Position numbers and translations under genes: made by a program
Shown: in pieces, positions 2,473-49,441 of the stretch
Layout of the letters: each line of letters starts with the position of its first letter
How positions within the stretch are numbered: position 1 is the first letter of the stretch
Notes under the pieces: generated by a model
Told to the model about the DNA's origin: nothing
The model's database searches: none
What the model saw: only the letters and a program-made list of their open reading frames with translations
Assembly: GCF_051903065.1 (NCBI RefSeq)
Contig: NZ_CP178438.1
Source: Escherichia coli
GTDB taxonomy: Bacteria > Pseudomonadota > Gammaproteobacteria > Enterobacterales > Enterobacteriaceae
DNA: 64,000 nucleotides
Direction: 5' to 3' (one strand)

Positions 2473-3795
2473 TTAATCAAACCGTAGCTGCGGCACAATC
2501 TCTTTGGCCTGCGCCAGGAATTCGCGACGATCGGAGCCGGTCAGCCCTTCGGTACGCGGCAGTTTTGCCGTCAGCGGGTTTACGGCCTGCTGGTTTATCC
2601 ATACTTCATAGTGCAGATGCGGCCCGGTTGAACGTCCGGTATTACCGGAAAGCGCGATACGGTCGCCACGTTTCACCTTCTGTCCCGGTTTCACCAGAAT
2701 CTTGCGCAAGTGCATATAACGCGTGGTGTAGCTGCGACCATGACGAATAGCCACATAATAACCTGCTGCGCCACTGCGTTTGGCAACCACCACTTCACCG
2801 TCACCCACTGAAAGCACTGGCGTACCCTGCGGCATGGCGAAATCAACACCTCTGTGTGGTGCAACGCGACCGGTCACCGGATTAGTACGACGCGGGTTAA
2901 AGTTAGACGAGATACGGAACTGTTTCGCCGTCGGGAATCGCAAGAATCCTTTCGCCAGACCAGTACCGTTACGATCGTAGAATTTGCCATCTTCAGCGCG
3001 GATAGCGTAATAATCTTTACCTTCTGAACGCAAACGTACGCCCAGCAGCTGGCTTTGCTCACGTTTACCATCAAGCATTTCTCGAGACATTAATACCGCA
3101 AATTCATCGCCTTTTTTCAGTTTGCGGAAATCCATTTGCCACTGCATGGCTTTAATCACTGCGCTCACTTCGGCGCTGGTTAAACCGGCGTTTCTGGCGC
3201 TGGCAACAAAGCTCCCCCCGACGGTACCTTTCAGCAGATTGTTAACCCACTCTCCTTGCTGCATTTCGCTGGTCATTTTAAAACCGTTAGCGGCAGTACG
3301 GTCATAGGTTCGGGTTTCACGACGAGACACTTCCCAGGTGAGGCGCTGCAGTTCGCCGTCCGCGGTTAATGTCCAGGAGAGTTGTTGACCGATTTTCAGG
3401 TTACGCAATTCTTTGTCGGCCGCAGCCAGTTGGGTGATATCACCCATATCAATACCATACTGATTGAGAATGCTGCTTAGCGTATCGCCAGTGGAAACAA
3501 CATATTCATGCACGCCCGCTTCACCGGCGATTTTGTCATCCAGTTCGTCCTGGGGAATGGCTTCATCTTCTTGTGCAGCTTGATCAATCGGCTCACTGGC
3601 TTCAGGCAAGAGCGAACGAATTTCGTTCTGTTCCAGCTCAATGGTTTTGACAATTGGCGTGGCATCGCGGTGATAAACATAGGGCCGCCAGACAGCGACG
3701 GCCAGAGTAAGAACGGTGAGCGACCCCAACATAACGCGGTGTGGTCGCGGTAAATTATTAAACGCCAGGGCGACAGAGCGGGCTATCTGTTGCAC
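2473..3795 (-). CDS. mepM: murein DD-endopeptidase MepM (LysM + M23 peptidase)
   Basis: 440-aa ORF matching YebA/MepM. Confidence 0.95.
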
Positions 3796-3810
3796 GTAAT
3801 CACTTCCTCA

Positions 3811-40456: not shown

Positions 40457-40717
40457 TATTCCCACCCAGAATAACCAACTTTATTTTTATGCGGTTTCAC
40501 CGCACCCCGTGATGTCGCCGGGAAGCCCCGGTAAAAAATAATTAGCATTAGAATAGTTGCGATAAGCTGCAATAAGCAGAGCCACCTTTTTGGTTTAATA
40601 AGTCCTTACAAATAGAAGGGGGTCTTTACACTTATCTAAGATTATTCCTAAATCGACGCAACTGTACTCGTCACTACACGCACATACAACGGAGGGGGGC
40701 TGCGATTTTCATTAATG

Positions 40718-40733
40718 TGTGATGCAGATCACA
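40718..40733. promoter_or_regulatory. CRP binding site in flhDC promoter
   Basis: TGTGATgcagaTCACA, perfect CRP half-sites, about 265 bp upstream of flhD ATG. Confidence 0.8.
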
Positions 40734-41235
40734 CAAATCACTCAATTACTTAACATAAATGTATAAGTCATACTTTTGTTTTGGGTGTATTTCAATCTGT
40801 TAAAAAGTTTTTCGCTACGCTAGCAAGCAAAAATGAAACAGGAATAATCGAAATGGGATGTTGCGCACAGTTAAAATAACTCACCGTAAATAATCATCTG
40901 CTATAAATAATCACTTTCATGCAATACCAGATAAGCTATTTTTAAACAGACACTTACCGCACAACAAACTAATTAAATACAAAGAAAGGCAACAATCAAC
41001 TTAATGTTAATAAAATGTTTTGCATATATTAACCACTTGTTTAATGCGGGGAATCAGTACATTATTTTCTTATAATTACAGTTGAAATCATATGATCACC
41101 GAGAGTGATTGATTAATTGTCTTTACTAATAATCAGACTAATATTTACCTGTTTGACTGAGTTGGGATTGCGTCGTTTCTCCATTAGGAGTAAAGCTTTA
41201 ATGTCACCTGAAGTTCACAGAATAAGGAACAGGTT

Positions 41236-46621: not shown

Positions 46622-47611
46622 TTACTTACCGCCTAAACCTTTTTTCTCCAGTTCTTCTTTAAAGTTGTCACGCGTGATCAGCACCACGTCGGTAACTTCG
46701 GTGAATTTGGTCGGTTCAACACCTTTTGCTACCCAGTTGTAAAGCATTTCGCTGGACTTATAACCATGTACGTCCGGGCTTGGCAACAGGGAACCGTAGA
46801 AGCCGGTTGCCTGTGCCTTAGACAGTTCGCTCACCGCATCCACACCGTTAATACCGATACCGATGATATCGGCCGCTTTAAAGCCCTGACCTTCCGTCGC
46901 GCGTACGCCGCCCAGCACGGTGCTGTCGTTCATACCGACGATCAGCCAATGTTTAACTTCCGGATGTTGAACCAGCATTGAGTTGGCAGCGTCAAATGCC
47001 CCGGGGATGTCGTTAGATTTGGTAGGTACCTGATAAATTTGTTTTTCCGGGAATCCTGCAGCTTTCAGCGCATCCATAGAACCCGTAGTACGGCGACGAG
47101 CCGTATCCAGTTCGTTGGAGGTAATCGCCATCACCGCGCTTTCTTTGACATCCCAGCCACGTTTCTGCATCTCTTTATACAGTTCCTGGCCCTGACGTTC
47201 GCCAATTTTGGTCGCCGCCATCATCACCAGAGGAACGGTATCCATTGGCTTACCTTTGGCGTTAACAAACTGGTCATCCACGGCAATGACTTTCATATCG
47301 TAGCCACGCGCTTTCGCCACGATGGCAGAGCCGAGTTTCGGGTCCGGAGTACAAATAACGAAACCTTTTGCGCCACTGGCGGCCAGGCTATCGATCGCGT
47401 TCAATGTTTTTTCGCCATCCGGCACGGCAATCTTAATAACCTCAAACCCTAAATCCTTCCCGGCTTTATCGGCAAACTTCCATTCGGTCTGGAACCACGG
47501 CTCTTCCGGTTGCTTCACCAGGAAACCGAGCTTCAGGTTCTCCGCCATAGCGGATTGTGACATAACGGCTGCCAGACCAATGGCTGCCAGGGCTTTAGTA
47601 AATTTGTGCAT
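46622..47611 (-). CDS. araF: L-arabinose ABC transporter periplasmic binding protein
   Basis: 329 aa from MHKFTKALAAIGLAAVMSQSAMA (signal peptide). Confidence 0.94.
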   Translation of the reverse strand: MHKFTKALAAIGLAAVMSQSAMAENLKLGFLVKQPEEPWFQTEWKFADKAGKDLGFEVIKIAVPDGEKTLNAIDSLAASGAKGFVICTPDPKLGSAIVAKARGYDMKVIAVDDQFVNAKGKPMDTVPLVMMAATKIGERQGQELYKEMQKRGWDVKESAVMAITSNELDTARRRTTGSMDALKAAGFPEKQIYQVPTKSNDIPGAFDAANSMLVQHPEVKHWLIVGMNDSTVLGGVRATEGQGFKAADIIGIGINGVDAVSELSKAQATGFYGSLLPSPDVHGYKSSEMLYNWVAKGVEPTKFTEVTDVVLITRDNFKEELEKKGLGGK

Positions 47612-48406
47612 GGTTCTCTCCAGCTTTAGTGTCGTTTTGTGTAGGGCAAAAACGAATGACATTCGTTAAATTAATCGGAAAACAAAGCATTACCTTTTAA
47701 CTAAAAGATAAGTGACTGTGTTGACATAGTTTTAGCGAGAAATTAATTCTCCATAGGAGAGCAATATCACATCGCAGAATTACAGTGAGAACGTGCATAA
47801 ATTTAGCGGGAAAAGACATAAGGAAAGCCAATTTGTCAGACAAATTGTTGAATGCACAGCAGATTAATCCATAAGATTAGCCTGGAAATCCTTGTTGTCT
47901 TTGGTACCCATGCGGGATGTCTTCTTTGTAACCAGTCAATAGGCCGCATTACCTGGCGTTGAGTTTTTGAAATGGTGTAATAACCGCAACTCAAAGATGT
48001 GGAAAATGCACGTCATTCATTTCGTCATTAATTATCACTGTGCTCATTAATTAACAGAACACGTATAATGAGAGCCATCTCGCAAAAATGAAAAAACGTT
48101 TTATAAAATCATCACTTCATCATGAATTCAAATTCATTGATTAATATCAACAAGATACAAAAAGCACTATCATTAAAATTCATTGCAGTTACATTGATTT
48201 CATCAATGAAATGTAAAAATATATAAACTTGATGATTTAAGCATTTTCTTATACCCGTTCAGACGTTATTCTTATTTCAGATCATCGTCAGAATTGACTC
48301 CACGATCACATTTCGGACCGGCAGAAAGGAATTATTCTGCAAACAGTAATTATGGTGTTTTGATTTATCTTGCACCTCTCCACTTCTGGATATAAGGATA
48401 TTAGGT

Positions 48407-48910
48407 ATGGCAACCGCTGGAATGCTTCTCAAACTCAACTCTCAAATGAACCGCGAGTTTTACGCATCCAATCTCTACCTTCACCTGAGTAACTGGTGTT
48501 CTGAACAGAGTCTGAACGGCACCGCCACTTTCCTTCGCGCCCAGGCACAGAGTAATGTGACCCAAATGATGCGCATGTTTAACTTTATGAAGAGTGTCGG
48601 CGCTACCCCCATCGTTAAAGCCATTGATGTTCCCGGTGAAAAACTGAACTCTCTGGAAGAACTGTTCCAAAAAACGATGGAAGAATACGAGCAACGTTCT
48701 AGTACGTTGGCACAGTTAGCCGATGAAGCGAAAGAACTGAATGATGATTCAACCGTCAATTTCCTGCGCGATCTGGAAAAAGAACAGCAGCATGATGGCC
48801 TGTTGCTGCAAACCATTCTTGATGAAGTGCGCAGTGCGAAACTTGCGGGTATGTGCCCAGTGCAGACCGACCAACATGTTCTGAATGTCGTGTCGCATCA
48901 GCTGCATTGA
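48407..48910 (+). CDS. ftnB: ferritin-like protein FtnB
   Basis: 167-aa ORF, ferritin-like. Confidence 0.93.
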
Positions 48911-49240: not shown

Positions 49241-49325
49241 CGTAAACTCCTGATAGCATTTTGAAAGCCGTTATAGTAGCGGCTTCACATCTTCAGCGAT
49301 AGTCACATCCACCGTCATCAGGACA

Positions 49326-49354
49326 CAAAAAAACCTGCCGGAGCAGGTTTTTTG
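49326..49354 (-). terminator. rho-independent terminator downstream of azuC
   Basis: acctgc-cgga-gcaggt hairpin flanked by A-run and T-run (potentially bidirectional). Confidence 0.7.
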
Positions 49355-49441
49355 TTATCGGAACATATTGCCTGGCGGTACGTCTTTGAACGTCTTGCAA
49401 TAGTTATTGAACATACTTTTCAGGATTTTGCGCAGTTTCAT
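49355..49441 (-). CDS. azuC: small protein AzuC (28 aa)
   Basis: minus strand translates to MKLRKILKSMFNNYCKTFKDVPPGNMFR; not in the 60-aa ORF track. Confidence 0.85.
   Translation of the reverse strand: MKLRKILKSMFNNYCKTFKDVPPGNMFR

Follow-up and report, generated by a model that had tools for sequence, protein, structure and literature searches.

The araF-ftnB intergenic region of Escherichia coli: two control regions joined by AT-rich DNA, and the probable loss of a DJ-1/PfpI gene

The unusually long interval between the divergent genes araF and ftnB of Escherichia coli is probably composed of two regulatory regions, mostly matching known regulation, which are joined by AT-rich filler, and its length probably derives from the loss of a DJ-1/PfpI gene. 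The left third (47612-47897) would be the araFGH control region, comprising a leader of about 111 nt, a weak -10 element and a CRP site next to RNA polymerase, together with two upstream AraC dimer sites and one conserved dyad. The right quarter (about 48200-48406) would be the ftnB control region, with a CpxR-type box, sigma-E-like and sigma-70-like elements, and a leader whose GGA motifs, one of them over the Shine-Dalgarno sequence, are bound by CsrA, which blocks translation. The central 300 bp appear to be under little or no constraint and are probably the remnant of an ancestral long AT-rich spacer upstream of ftnB. In the ancestor, araF and ftnB were probably separated by a 185-aa DJ-1/PfpI gene; with its loss in Escherichia, the DNA upstream of araF would have become joined to the spacer upstream of ftnB. 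The main elements, i.e., the regulation of araFGH by AraC and CRP and that of ftnB by Cpx, sigma-E and CsrA, are mostly already known, and the conserved flanks are largely explained by known promoters and leaders. The present analysis provides the pattern of conservation in three zones, the motif matches and the distribution of the DJ-1 gene across genera, while the control by CsrA, Cpx and sigma-E and the Term-seq ends are taken from published work; what we infer is where exactly transcription starts, in which direction the gene-loss event ran, and how the centre originated. The gap is of little importance for discovery, in that its conserved parts mostly correspond to described regulation and the rest behaves as neutral filler.

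Boundaries and composition of the intergenic region

The window, i.e., the whole stretch of E. coli DNA that was analysed, has a length of 64,000 nucleotides, and the features discussed here are collected in Table 1. The start codon of araF occupies 47611-47609 on the minus strand, and the ATG of ftnB begins at 48407. An earlier, sequence-only reading of this DNA had described the gap at 47612-48406 as about 800 bp, AT-rich and unusually long, and the measurements agree: it comprises 795 bp with a GC content of 34.7%, compared with 49.9% for the whole window, and a minimum of 25.5% is reached at 48100-48299. Among the stretches of the window which are free of ORFs of at least 60 aa, the gap is the second-longest (731 bp), the first being a stretch of 770 bp at 40466-41235. 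As that reading had also stated, the ORF list contains no ORF of at least 60 aa inside the gap; the longest are of 53 aa (48277-48438, minus strand, extending into ftnB), 52 aa (47836-47994, minus strand) and 48 aa. In such AT-rich DNA an ORF-free run of this kind is not itself surprising. The region is carried by 5405 of 5426 complete E. coli genomes with an identity of 95-100%. The current RefSeq annotation of MG1655, which includes recent small genes, e.g., azuC/azuR and spfP, leaves the interval from araF to ftnB empty.

Table 1. Features of the araF-ftnB gap and its boundaries (positions in the window)
Feature	Position	Strand	Basis or remark
araF CDS, arabinose ABC transporter binding protein (left boundary)	46622..47611	-	ORF list and RefSeq annotation of identical DNA
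Putative araF 5' leader, about 111 nt	47612..47722	-	16-genome alignment
araFGH core promoter: -10 TAAAAC (47734-47729) and CRP-like site TGTGATATTGCTCTCC (47771-47756)	47729..47771	-	Consensus match, alignment
Proximal AraC-like half-site pair: CAGTGAGAACGTGCATA (47783) and TAGCGGGAAAAGACATA (47804)	47783..47820	+	21 bp apart, pointing away from araF
19-bp dyad CAATTTGTCAGACAAATTG, core TTGTC-N-GACAA	47829..47847		Conserved; between the two AraC-like site pairs
Distal AraC-like half-site pair: CAGCAGATTAATCCATA (47857) and TAGCCTGGAAATCCTTG (47878)	47857..47894	+	21 bp apart
Fast-evolving AT-rich centre, 302 bp, 33.8% GC	47898..48199		Escherichia only
Semi-conserved CRP-like sequence, next to TATAAT (48064-48069)	48069-48084		Within the centre; 8/10 match
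Near-palindrome ttgatttcatcaatgaaatg	48194..48213		Present as described in the sequence-only reading
ftnB promoter region	48213..48272	+	Consensus matches, cross-genus conservation
CpxR-like box GTAAAAATATATAAA	48213-48227	+	9/10 against CpxR consensus GTAAA-N5-GTAAA
Sigma-E-like -35 TAAACTT and -10 TCTTA	48224-48230 and 48247-48251	+	9/12 consensus match
Sigma-70-like -10 TATTCT	48267-48272	+	ftnB promoter region
ftnB 5' leader, putative start within 48258-48282 (length about 128-149 nt)	48258..48406	+	Conservation, GGA motifs
Two published RNA 3' ends in the ftnB leader	48338 (MG1655 1986856) and 48381 (MG1655 1986899)	+	Term-seq supplements, PMC7815308
ftnB CDS, ferritin-like protein (right boundary)	48407..48910	+	ORF list and RefSeq annotation

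The araFGH control region

The araF side (47612-47897) is 77-80% conserved across genera, and within Escherichia its identity to the window is 83-92%. The results from blastn analyses indicate similarity to most other araF-carrying genera from 47406 to 47895/47896, with an earlier end, at 47843-47845, in three loci. Transcription of araFGH is arabinose- and cAMP-dependent, and its promoter is reportedly activated by AraC plus CRP. The proposal of the sequence-only reading that the gap holds the araFGH promoter is borne out by the AraC-like half-sites, the CRP-like site and the -10 element, each of them preserved in an alignment of 16 genomes from several genera. The core promoter block is nearly invariant across genera. 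Within it, the CRP-like site TGTGATATTGCTCTCC matches the consensus at 8/10 positions and is centred at about -41.5, as counted from a putative start of araF transcription which, judging from the spacing of the -10 element and the CRP site, would lie near 47722. Of the proximal half-sites, TAGCGGGAAAAGACATA matches TAGC-N7-TCCATA at 8/10, while its partner CAGTGAGAACGTGCATA was identified by eye; both are conserved in the 16-genome alignment. The distal half-sites match the same consensus at up to 9/10 (CAGCAGATTAATCCATA and TAGCCTGGAAATCCTTG, 9/10 and 8/10, respectively), and this pair is the final element of the block conserved across genera. The half-sites of each pair form direct repeats spaced 21 bp apart, and all four are conserved across the 16 genomes. 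The arrangement of 21-bp AraC half-site pairs upstream of a CRP site adjoining the -10 element is that of the E. coli araFGH promoter, which is the same locus, and there is no difference in kind, except that the dyad at 47829-47847 is not known to belong to that architecture.

The putative araF leader includes a Shine-Dalgarno sequence, GGAG, at 47621-47618, and two blocks which stand out in the 16-genome alignment: CCCTACA (47646-47640), which is invariant across genera, and AGGTAATGCTTTGTTT (47695-47680), which is largely so. The leader folds no better than shuffled sequences (z = -0.49). The invariant block, CCCTACA, shows complementarity to the 5' end of Spot 42. Pairing of Spot 42 with the araF leader was considered and rejected, since the longest-helix statistic was not above shuffles (439/1000) and the energy of the whole-length duplex was not significant.

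The ftnB control region

The ftnB side has an identity of 79-99% to the window in Escherichia and is nearly invariant in the genus, and similarity with Citrobacter and Salmonella resumes, by blastn, at 48191-48211. The AT-rich near-palindrome ttgatttcatcaatgaaatg, to which the sequence-only reading had drawn attention, is indeed found at 48194-48213; in other Escherichia species only its right half is conserved and the left arm is not kept, and the right arm runs into the conserved CpxR-like box. This box, GTAAAAATATATAAA, is of the kind expected upstream of a Cpx regulon promoter, and Escherichia, Citrobacter and Salmonella all retain it. The sequences ATGTAAAAA..ATAAAC and TTTAAGGATTTTCTTAT are likewise kept in these three genera. 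In a comparison with the sigma-E consensus (-35 GGAACTT and -10 TCTGA, about 16 bp apart), the best match on the plus strand extends from 48224 to 48251, with agreement at 9 of 12 positions. Both positive regulation of ftnB by Cpx and a sigma-E promoter for ftnB (yecI) are on record in the literature, and ftnB has been reported to have a sigma-E promoter as well as a Cpx-dependent sigma-70 promoter (PMC6686035). The exact starts of ftnB transcription would fall in the interval given in Table 1.

The ftnB leader contains GGA motifs at 48315, 48328, 48388 and 48396. The one at 48328 is located in the loop of a predicted hairpin, GCAGAA/TTCTGC (48321-48340), while that at 48396 is within the Shine-Dalgarno sequence, such that the region has the arrangement of GGA motifs which characterizes a CsrA-repressed leader. 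The identity of the leader across Escherichia species is 93-99%, and among seven E. coli strains it has no segregating sites (pi = 0). The hairpin is retained in 19-20 of 20 genomes, with changes that are only G-U-compatible. The leader as a whole folds no better than shuffled sequences (z = -0.61). Four GGA motifs and three CsrA footprints, one of them over the Shine-Dalgarno sequence, have been reported in the ftnB leader; expression is derepressed 14-fold in a csrA mutant, a fusion used in that work spans +1 to +152, and CsrA represses ftnB in a purified translation system (PMC6686035). The locus is the same as that of the CsrA-repressed leader of Pourciau et al. 2019 (PMC6686035), with four GGA motifs and one over the Shine-Dalgarno sequence as published, to which the present analysis adds that the leader is nearly invariant throughout the genus and that Citrobacter and Salmonella, too, have the hairpin. 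Few sequences of the locus are as constrained as the ftnB leader, in keeping with its being a target of CsrA.

The AT-rich centre and the DJ-1/PfpI gene

In Citrobacter, Leclercia, Lelliottia, Silvania and others, araF is separated from ftnB by an ORF of 185 aa encoding a DJ-1/PfpI protein, and in Salmonella this ORF is found upstream of ftnB. The gene is absent from Escherichia, and it has independently decayed or been deleted in four further loci (L008, L015, L037 and L039). In Escherichia the AT-rich centre sits where other genera have the DJ-1/PfpI gene and its upstream spacer. The spacer from the DJ-1 gene to ftnB measures 489-556 bp with 34-39% GC in Citrobacter and Salmonella, and the distance from 47897 to the ftnB ATG is 510 bp. 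The unusual length of the gap is best explained by the loss of this gene, which is still present in other enteric genera. A remnant of DJ-1 was sought in the Escherichia gaps by tblastn and by a six-frame profile search, and no hit was obtained at an E value below 4; the same six-frame search returned E values of 1e-24 for both L039 and L015 and of 0.005 for L008. The Escherichia gaps thus contain no recognizable DJ-1/PfpI pseudogene.

Neither blastn nor profile nhmmer detected a homologue of the centre outside Escherichia, the DJ-1/ftnB spacers of the other genera included. In global alignments of the centre with these spacers, z values against shuffles ranged from 0 to 2.8 and were mostly not significant, and an Escherichia control gave a z of about 15. 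The spacer is unalignable even between the Citrobacter groups and Salmonella, and the missing homology of the centre is therefore uninformative. Because homology to the DJ-1/ftnB spacer is undemonstrable, the origin of the centre is argued only from position and size.

Within Escherichia, the identity of the centre to other species is 52-56%, with 11-17 gaps, compared with 62-70% at four-fold degenerate sites, and in seven E. coli strains its pi of 0.037 is the highest of all zones. Its rate of evolution equals or exceeds the neutral one. A few short islands, TTAATTATCAC, ATAATGAGAGC, CATCA and AATATCAA, are invariant across Escherichia species, and given these islands, parts of the centre may be functional.

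It is conceivable, and in our view unlikely, that the centre takes part in the control of ftnB as a functional extension, i.e., that nucleoid proteins such as H-NS, with a possible input from CRP, use it as an AT-rich platform from which ftnB would be silenced or tuned. The invariant islands and the AT-richness, with GC falling to its minimum for the gap, are in accord with such a platform, as is the CRP-like sequence at 48069-48084, in which TG.GA-N6-TC.CA is retained in most Escherichia species. In addition, the inhibition of Rho raises plus-strand coverage from 19 to 138 reads over the 800 nt upstream of 48338, and a Salmonella paper reportedly links ftnB, Fur and H-NS. A resemblance to the paralogue ftnA, with its long upstream region, points in the same direction: there, too, a ferritin-family gene is preceded by several hundred AT-rich base pairs, and H-NS silencing is reportedly relieved by Fe-Fur. 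The ftnB gap differs, however, from the ftnA region in that it is without Fur boxes above chance and in that its distal part is not conserved. No box close to GATAATGATAATCATTATC, as expected of a Fur-regulated promoter, was found; the best match agrees at 12 of 19 positions, and block shuffles reach at least 12 in 275 of 300 cases, usually with 12-13. Overall conservation of the centre is below the neutral benchmark, indels are frequent, and several of the candidate positions (48068, 48076, 48079, 48099, 48104 and 48110) vary within E. coli, all of which argue against such a platform. Moreover, an ftnB'-'lacZ fusion with about 500 nt of upstream DNA was unaffected by Fur, and no Fur effect was seen on ftnB expression in LB (PMC6686035). 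The reading of the centre as filler under little or no constraint is preferred.

Small RNA and small protein candidates

The sequence-only reading had suggested that the length of the gap leaves room for an unannotated small RNA or small protein, and had named transcriptome data and conservation as checks. We judge it very unlikely that the gap conceals such a gene, whether specific to E. coli and located in the centre or in the form of a functional RNA derived by cleavage from the ftnB leader. With regard to transcripts, published Term-seq data from three conditions, with positions mapped from MG1655 to the window, place two RNA 3' ends in the ftnB leader, the first of them at the conserved hairpin with the GGA loop (PMC7815308). 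This is the part of the check which could favour a hidden RNA. There is no other entry in MG1655 1986000-1986999 and none in the centre or on the minus strand in these conditions, and the check therefore speaks against any transcript ending outside the leader. The end at 48338 is represented by 1255 reads, with a Rho score of 0.49 (not significant) and an intrinsic-terminator score of 1.39, i.e., below the threshold of 3 (PMC7815308). Both ends were classed by Adams et al. 2021 among the 3' ends in 5' UTRs as 'orphan, upstream ORF'; compared with the ends described there, those in the ftnB leader are low-count and without a terminator or Rho signature, no regulatory element was noted for them, and the main text never names ftnB (PMC7815308). 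The two low-count ends are 5'-UTR fragments and not a separate gene. It seems correspondingly improbable that an RNA of about 60-80 nt, reaching from the ftnB promoter to the 3' end at 48338 at the GGA-loop hairpin, is a functional 5'-UTR-derived regulatory RNA, e.g., a decoy for CsrA, and not a decay fragment.

Sequence-based searches gave a similar picture. No Rfam match was found in the gap at E values up to 1. Promoter-like sites numbered 0, where 3.3 were expected from shuffles, and weak terminator-like sites 2, where 1.1 were expected, such that neither was in excess over shuffles. No small RNA gene was found in the gap, either as a defined transcript which starts at a promoter of its own and ends at a terminator or a stable 3' end, or by conservation of sequence or structure or membership in a described family. 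The room which the sequence-only reading saw for a gene is therefore not occupied by any detectable one: the centre evolves as described above, at or above the neutral rate and less conserved than four-fold sites, and it contains no small ORF which is intact across Escherichia species. An 18-codon ORF at 48088-48144, for example, was rejected, its ATG being replaced by CTG in other species. The two small ORFs that are intact across Escherichia are both located in promoter or leader DNA which is itself invariant. One of them, an upstream ORF of 33 codons with a TTG start in the ftnB leader (48294-48395), has an unbroken reading frame in every Escherichia species, which could favour a hidden gene; it was rejected, as it is not kept beyond Escherichia and the C. 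amalonaticus group. This ORF is also without a Shine-Dalgarno sequence, and in most Citrobacter stops at codon 4 despite the conserved DNA there. No small protein gene was found whose start, reading frame and stop are all preserved in related species, and the current MG1655 annotation is, as noted, empty here. The probable origin of the length by gene loss is a warning against taking long intergenic regions as evidence of hidden genes.

That the centre is instead foreign DNA, e.g., left behind by a mobile element or acquired horizontally as a fragment, which took the place of the DJ-1 gene, would agree with an AT-rich segment without detectable homologue outside Escherichia, but is exceedingly improbable, given that no match was obtained in a phage collection, that the matches in a plasmid collection are only E. 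coli records of 0.39-4.9 Mb resembling chromosomal DNA, that the centre has no ORF and is found at the same place in every Escherichia species examined, and that the equivalent spacer of other genera is equally AT-rich and equally poorly conserved between genera.

A conserved dyad between the AraC site pairs

In the araFGH control region, the dyad CAATTTGTCAGACAAATTG is not accounted for by AraC or CRP. Its arms are conserved in Escherichia and in most other genera, its centre base is variable even within E. coli, and no other exact copy is present in the window. The conservation suggests that the araFGH promoter may receive an input not yet assigned to any factor. The 11-mers of the dyad can also be found in papers on the GntR-family regulators AlkR and LhgR, and the dyad contains exactly the core TTGTC-N-GACAA which GntR/FadR-type operators reportedly have.

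The araF-ftnB gap

The 795 bp between the divergent genes araF and ftnB (47612-48406) consist of a regulatory landscape that is already known and of neutral filler where a gene has probably been lost. The sequence-only reading had described an AT-rich, ORF-poor gap of about 800 bp, and this description holds: the gap contains no ORF reaching 60 aa, its GC content is 34.7% versus 49.9% for the window, with the lowest value (25.5%) at 48100-48299, and the near-palindrome that had been quoted is present at 48194-48213. The length is notable, not unique, as the gap ranks second among the ORF-free stretches of the window at a cut-off of 60 aa. By this measure it is slightly exceeded by the longest such stretch (40466-41235; 770 bp), which from its map position is presumably the region upstream of flhDC.

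The window belongs to the E. coli chromosome. Of 5426 complete genomes of this species, 5405 carry the 1.2 kb around the gap at 95-100% identity. The RefSeq annotation of MG1655 is empty between araF and ftnB, though the same record includes the recent small genes azuC/azuR and spfP.

Features of the araF-ftnB gap and its borders, in window coordinates
Feature	Position	Strand	Remarks
araF start codon	47611-47609	minus	left flank of gap
araF Shine-Dalgarno GGAG			after the leader blocks, before the araF start
araF leader block CCCTACA	47640-47646	minus	invariant, 16 genomes
araF leader block AGGTAATGCTTTGTTT	47680-47695	minus	largely invariant, 16 genomes
Candidate araF TSS	near 47722		within variable stretch; placed by spacing
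-10 TAAAAC	47734-47729		closes an invariant block
CRP-like site	47771-47756		consensus 8/10
Proximal AraC-like half-site pair	47783 and 47804		21 bp apart
Dyad CAATTTGTCAGACAAATTG	47829-47847		19 bp; between the two AraC-like pairs
Distal AraC-like half-site pair	47857 and 47878		21 bp apart; consensus 9/10 and 8/10
12-codon ORF			inside invariant araF promoter; intact across Escherichia
CpxR-type box ATGTAAAAA..ATAAAC	48213-48227		consensus 9/10
TTTAAGGATTTTCTTAT	ftnB side		invariant
-10-like TAT(G/T)CT	ftnB side		conserved
Sigma-E-like pair TAAACTT + TCTTA			candidate ftnB TSS near 48258
Sigma-70-like TATTCT			candidate ftnB TSS near 48279
33-codon TTG ORF	48294-48395	plus	ftnB leader; stops 11 nt before ftnB ATG; intact in all Escherichia species
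Hairpin GCAGAA-AGGAATTA-TTCTGC	ftnB leader		GGA in loop
CTGGA(A/T)ATAAGGATATT	reaches ftnB ATG		conserved
ftnB ATG	48407	plus	right flank of gap

Conserved flanks and a divergent centre

The comparison set comprised 38 loci anchored on FtnB, with one genome per species. Divergent araF and ftnB are neighbours in Escherichia, Citrobacter, Leclercia, Lelliottia, Silvania, Huaxiibacter, and one Enterobacter MAG. When the window was compared with these loci by blastn, the araF-side zone (47406-47895/47896) shared 77-80% identity with most araF-carrying genera, the similarity ending already at 47843-47845 in three loci, and the ftnB-side zone (about 48191-48211 to 48406) shared 70-77% identity with Citrobacter and Salmonella. 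The central 300 bp or so gave no blastn match outside Escherichia among the fetched loci.

The same three zones are seen in an alignment of eight Escherichia sequences. As a neutral yardstick we took the four-fold degenerate sites of araF and ftnB, at which the window shares 62-70% identity with the five more distant Escherichia species. Against the same five species, with the window as reference, identity reaches 86-90% in the araF leader, 83-86% in the araF promoter region, 79-90% in the ftnB promoter and 93-99% in the ftnB leader. For the centre (47898-48199) the value is 52-56%, and the alignment there has 11-17 gap columns. Nucleotide diversity among seven E. coli strains drops from 0.037 in the centre to 0.014-0.019 in the two coding sequences and to 0 in the ftnB leader. 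By these comparisons, both flanks are under purifying selection and the centre as a whole is free of it.

Probable loss of a DJ-1 family gene

In the gaps outside Escherichia, the araF strand carries a conserved ORF of 185 aa, whose product is a member of the DJ-1/PfpI family (Pfam PF01965; E value 2.6e-29) and has the DJ-1 family glyoxalase III as its closest NCBIfam model. Gap lengths in these araF-carrying genera are for the most part about 1250-1435 bp, falling to about 1100 bp in two loci whose spacer between the DJ-1 gene and ftnB is short; in all six other Escherichia species the gap is 789-800 bp and the gene is absent. The difference in length, about 597 bp, is the size of the DJ-1 coding sequence and its short 3' flank taken together. 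In the C. amalonaticus locus (L009, locus coordinates), the araF-conserved block ends at 2894, the DJ-1 gene occupies 2927-3484, and the ftnB block starts at 3800, with 516 bp from the DJ-1 start to the ftnB ATG. Across Citrobacter and Salmonella this spacer is 489-556 bp long with 34-39% GC; in the window, 510 bp with about 34% GC separate the end of the distal AraC site from the ftnB ATG.

In Salmonella, araF is not beside ftnB, yet the DJ-1 gene is kept upstream of ftnB. The gene is present in Salmonella and Citrobacter, which form the sister clade of Escherichia, and in more distant genera, but in no Escherichia. The parsimonious reading is therefore that it was lost at the base of this genus, and this is probably what occurred. 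Moreover, the gene has independently undergone deletion or decay in at least four of the Citrobacter and Leclercia genomes sampled, so that, as judged from these loci, its loss is demonstrably recurrent: one copy has an internal 456-bp deletion (L008), one is fragmented with internal pieces missing (L015), one is broken into two pieces (L037), and of one only a decayed C-terminal half is left (L039). Homology of the Escherichia centre to the distal part of the DJ-1/ftnB spacer could not be demonstrated, in a test that has no power, since the spacer aligns no better among Citrobacter groups and Salmonella, all of which keep the gene. We infer the origin of the centre from its position, size, and composition.

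The araF control region

The elements on the araF side were assigned from a 16-genome alignment in the araF direction, consensus scans, and coordinate checks. The claim that the gap holds the araFGH promoter proved correct, the AraC-like pairs, the CRP-like site and the -10 all being present in this alignment. In the araFGH promoter, reportedly described by Hendrickson et al. in 1990 and Johnson and Schleif in 2000, CRP is said to lie by the polymerase and AraC upstream, with half-sites facing away from the gene, and the order of elements in the window agrees with this architecture. In most genera, cross-genus similarity stops at the final base of the distal AraC site, as would be expected if the sequence beyond had once belonged to a neighbouring gene.

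The arms of the dyad between the AraC-like pairs are conserved in Escherichia, Citrobacter, Lelliottia, Leclercia, and Silvania, and its centre base is variable even within E. coli. Its core, TTGTC-N-GACAA, is presumably of the type bound by GntR/FadR-family regulators, and 11-mers identical to it occur in papers on such regulators. This core looks like a GntR/FadR-type operator; we know of no factor for the dyad. CCCUAC in the araF leader and GUAGGG, the six bases at the start of Spot 42, are complementary; the helix length was not significant when compared with shuffles.

In Salmonella enterica subsp. diarizonae (L010), no araF was found in the approximately 4 kb fetched upstream of ftnB, and locus positions 2618-2678 and 2712-2827 share 76-84% identity with the araF start and promoter region. 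This suggests that araFGH was deleted in this subspecies and its control region left behind.

The ftnB promoter and leader

Elements on the ftnB side were taken from a 20-genome alignment. According to Pourciau et al. 2019 (PMC6686035), translation of ftnB is repressed 14-fold by CsrA, and the 5' UTR contains four GGA motifs, three of them footprinted, with the strongest footprint overlapping the Shine-Dalgarno sequence. Exactly four GGAs lie downstream of 48258 in the window (48315, 48328, 48388, and 48396), the same number as in the published leader. Transcription employs one sigma-E promoter and one Cpx-dependent sigma-70 promoter, and the in-vitro fusion spans +1 to +152 (PMC6686035). If this 152-nt fusion is in frame, the TSS would be one of the positions 48258, 48261 and so on up to 48282, a range that both the sigma-E-like and the sigma-70-like candidates fit.

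The GGA hairpin was recovered by RNAalifold in 19-20 of 20 genomes, with solely G-U-compatible changes and no compensatory pairs among them, and the whole leader folds no better than shuffles (z = -0.61). The constraint on the leader is therefore most readily explained by protein-binding sequence and a single small hairpin, without a large RNA structure. In Salmonella and in the C. freundii group, 35-40 additional nt separate the GGA hairpin from the Shine-Dalgarno sequence (ftnB-side alignment A2, columns about 176-225; e.g. L015-L026, L010, and L013). This segment holds a GC-rich inverted repeat, GTGCAACGG...CCGTTGCAC, and is missing from Escherichia and C. amalonaticus.

Transcript ends

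Adams et al. 2021 (PMC7815308) list Term-seq 3' ends for LB at OD 0.4, LB at OD 2.0, and M63 glucose, all three without arabinose, so that their reach does not extend to araF-side transcripts. The only entries between MG1655 positions 1986000 and 1986999 are two plus-strand ends, 1986856 (window 48338, within the 3' arm of the GGA hairpin) and 1986899 (window 48381). The end at 48338 is backed by 1255 reads, which is among the lower counts in the table, and has a non-significant Rho score of 0.49 and an intrinsic-terminator score of 1.39, below the threshold of 3 set by the authors; they note no regulatory element for it, and ftnB is unmentioned in the main text (PMC7815308). In our reading both ends arise by processing or decay of the ftnB leader, with the hairpin or CsrA perhaps stabilising them; they are no evidence for a separate gene. 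Plus-strand coverage in the 800 nt upstream of 48338 (about 47538-48338) goes from 19 to 138 under inhibition of Rho by bicyclomycin (PMC7815308, supplementary file 3), which hints at Rho-suppressed pervasive transcription over the AT-rich gap.

The centre and the question of a hidden gene

The suggested small RNA or small protein finds no support in conservation, motif, structure, annotation, or Term-seq evidence. In the centre, no Rfam family matched at E values up to 1, a promoter scan found none versus 3.3 in shuffles, and two weak terminator-like sites compare with 1.1 in shuffles. All ORFs of at least 10 codons in the gap were examined for a start, frame, and stop kept across Escherichia species; only two passed, and none of those in the centre. 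Of the two, the 33-codon TTG ORF was rejected as a gene, having no Shine-Dalgarno sequence and being interrupted at codon 4 in most Citrobacter despite conserved DNA; it is probably a by-product of nucleotide conservation.

Matches to Fur boxes in the centre are at chance level. Invariant islands of the centre across Escherichia are TTAATTATCAC near 48028, ATAATGAGAGC near 48065, CATCA, and AATATCAA; a CRP-like sequence, TGAGAGCCATCTCGCA (48069-48084; consensus 8/10), overlaps one of them, and several of these positions are variable within E. coli. The centre had no match in phages, and in the plasmid collection it matched only E. coli records of 0.39-4.9 Mb that resemble chromosomal DNA.

Outside the gap, between yecJ and azuC/azuR and on the strand opposite to azuC, 49295-49359 (plus strand) matched the Rfam model of STnc370, an enterobacterial sRNA, below threshold (33.4 bits versus a gathering score of 54; E value 0.065).
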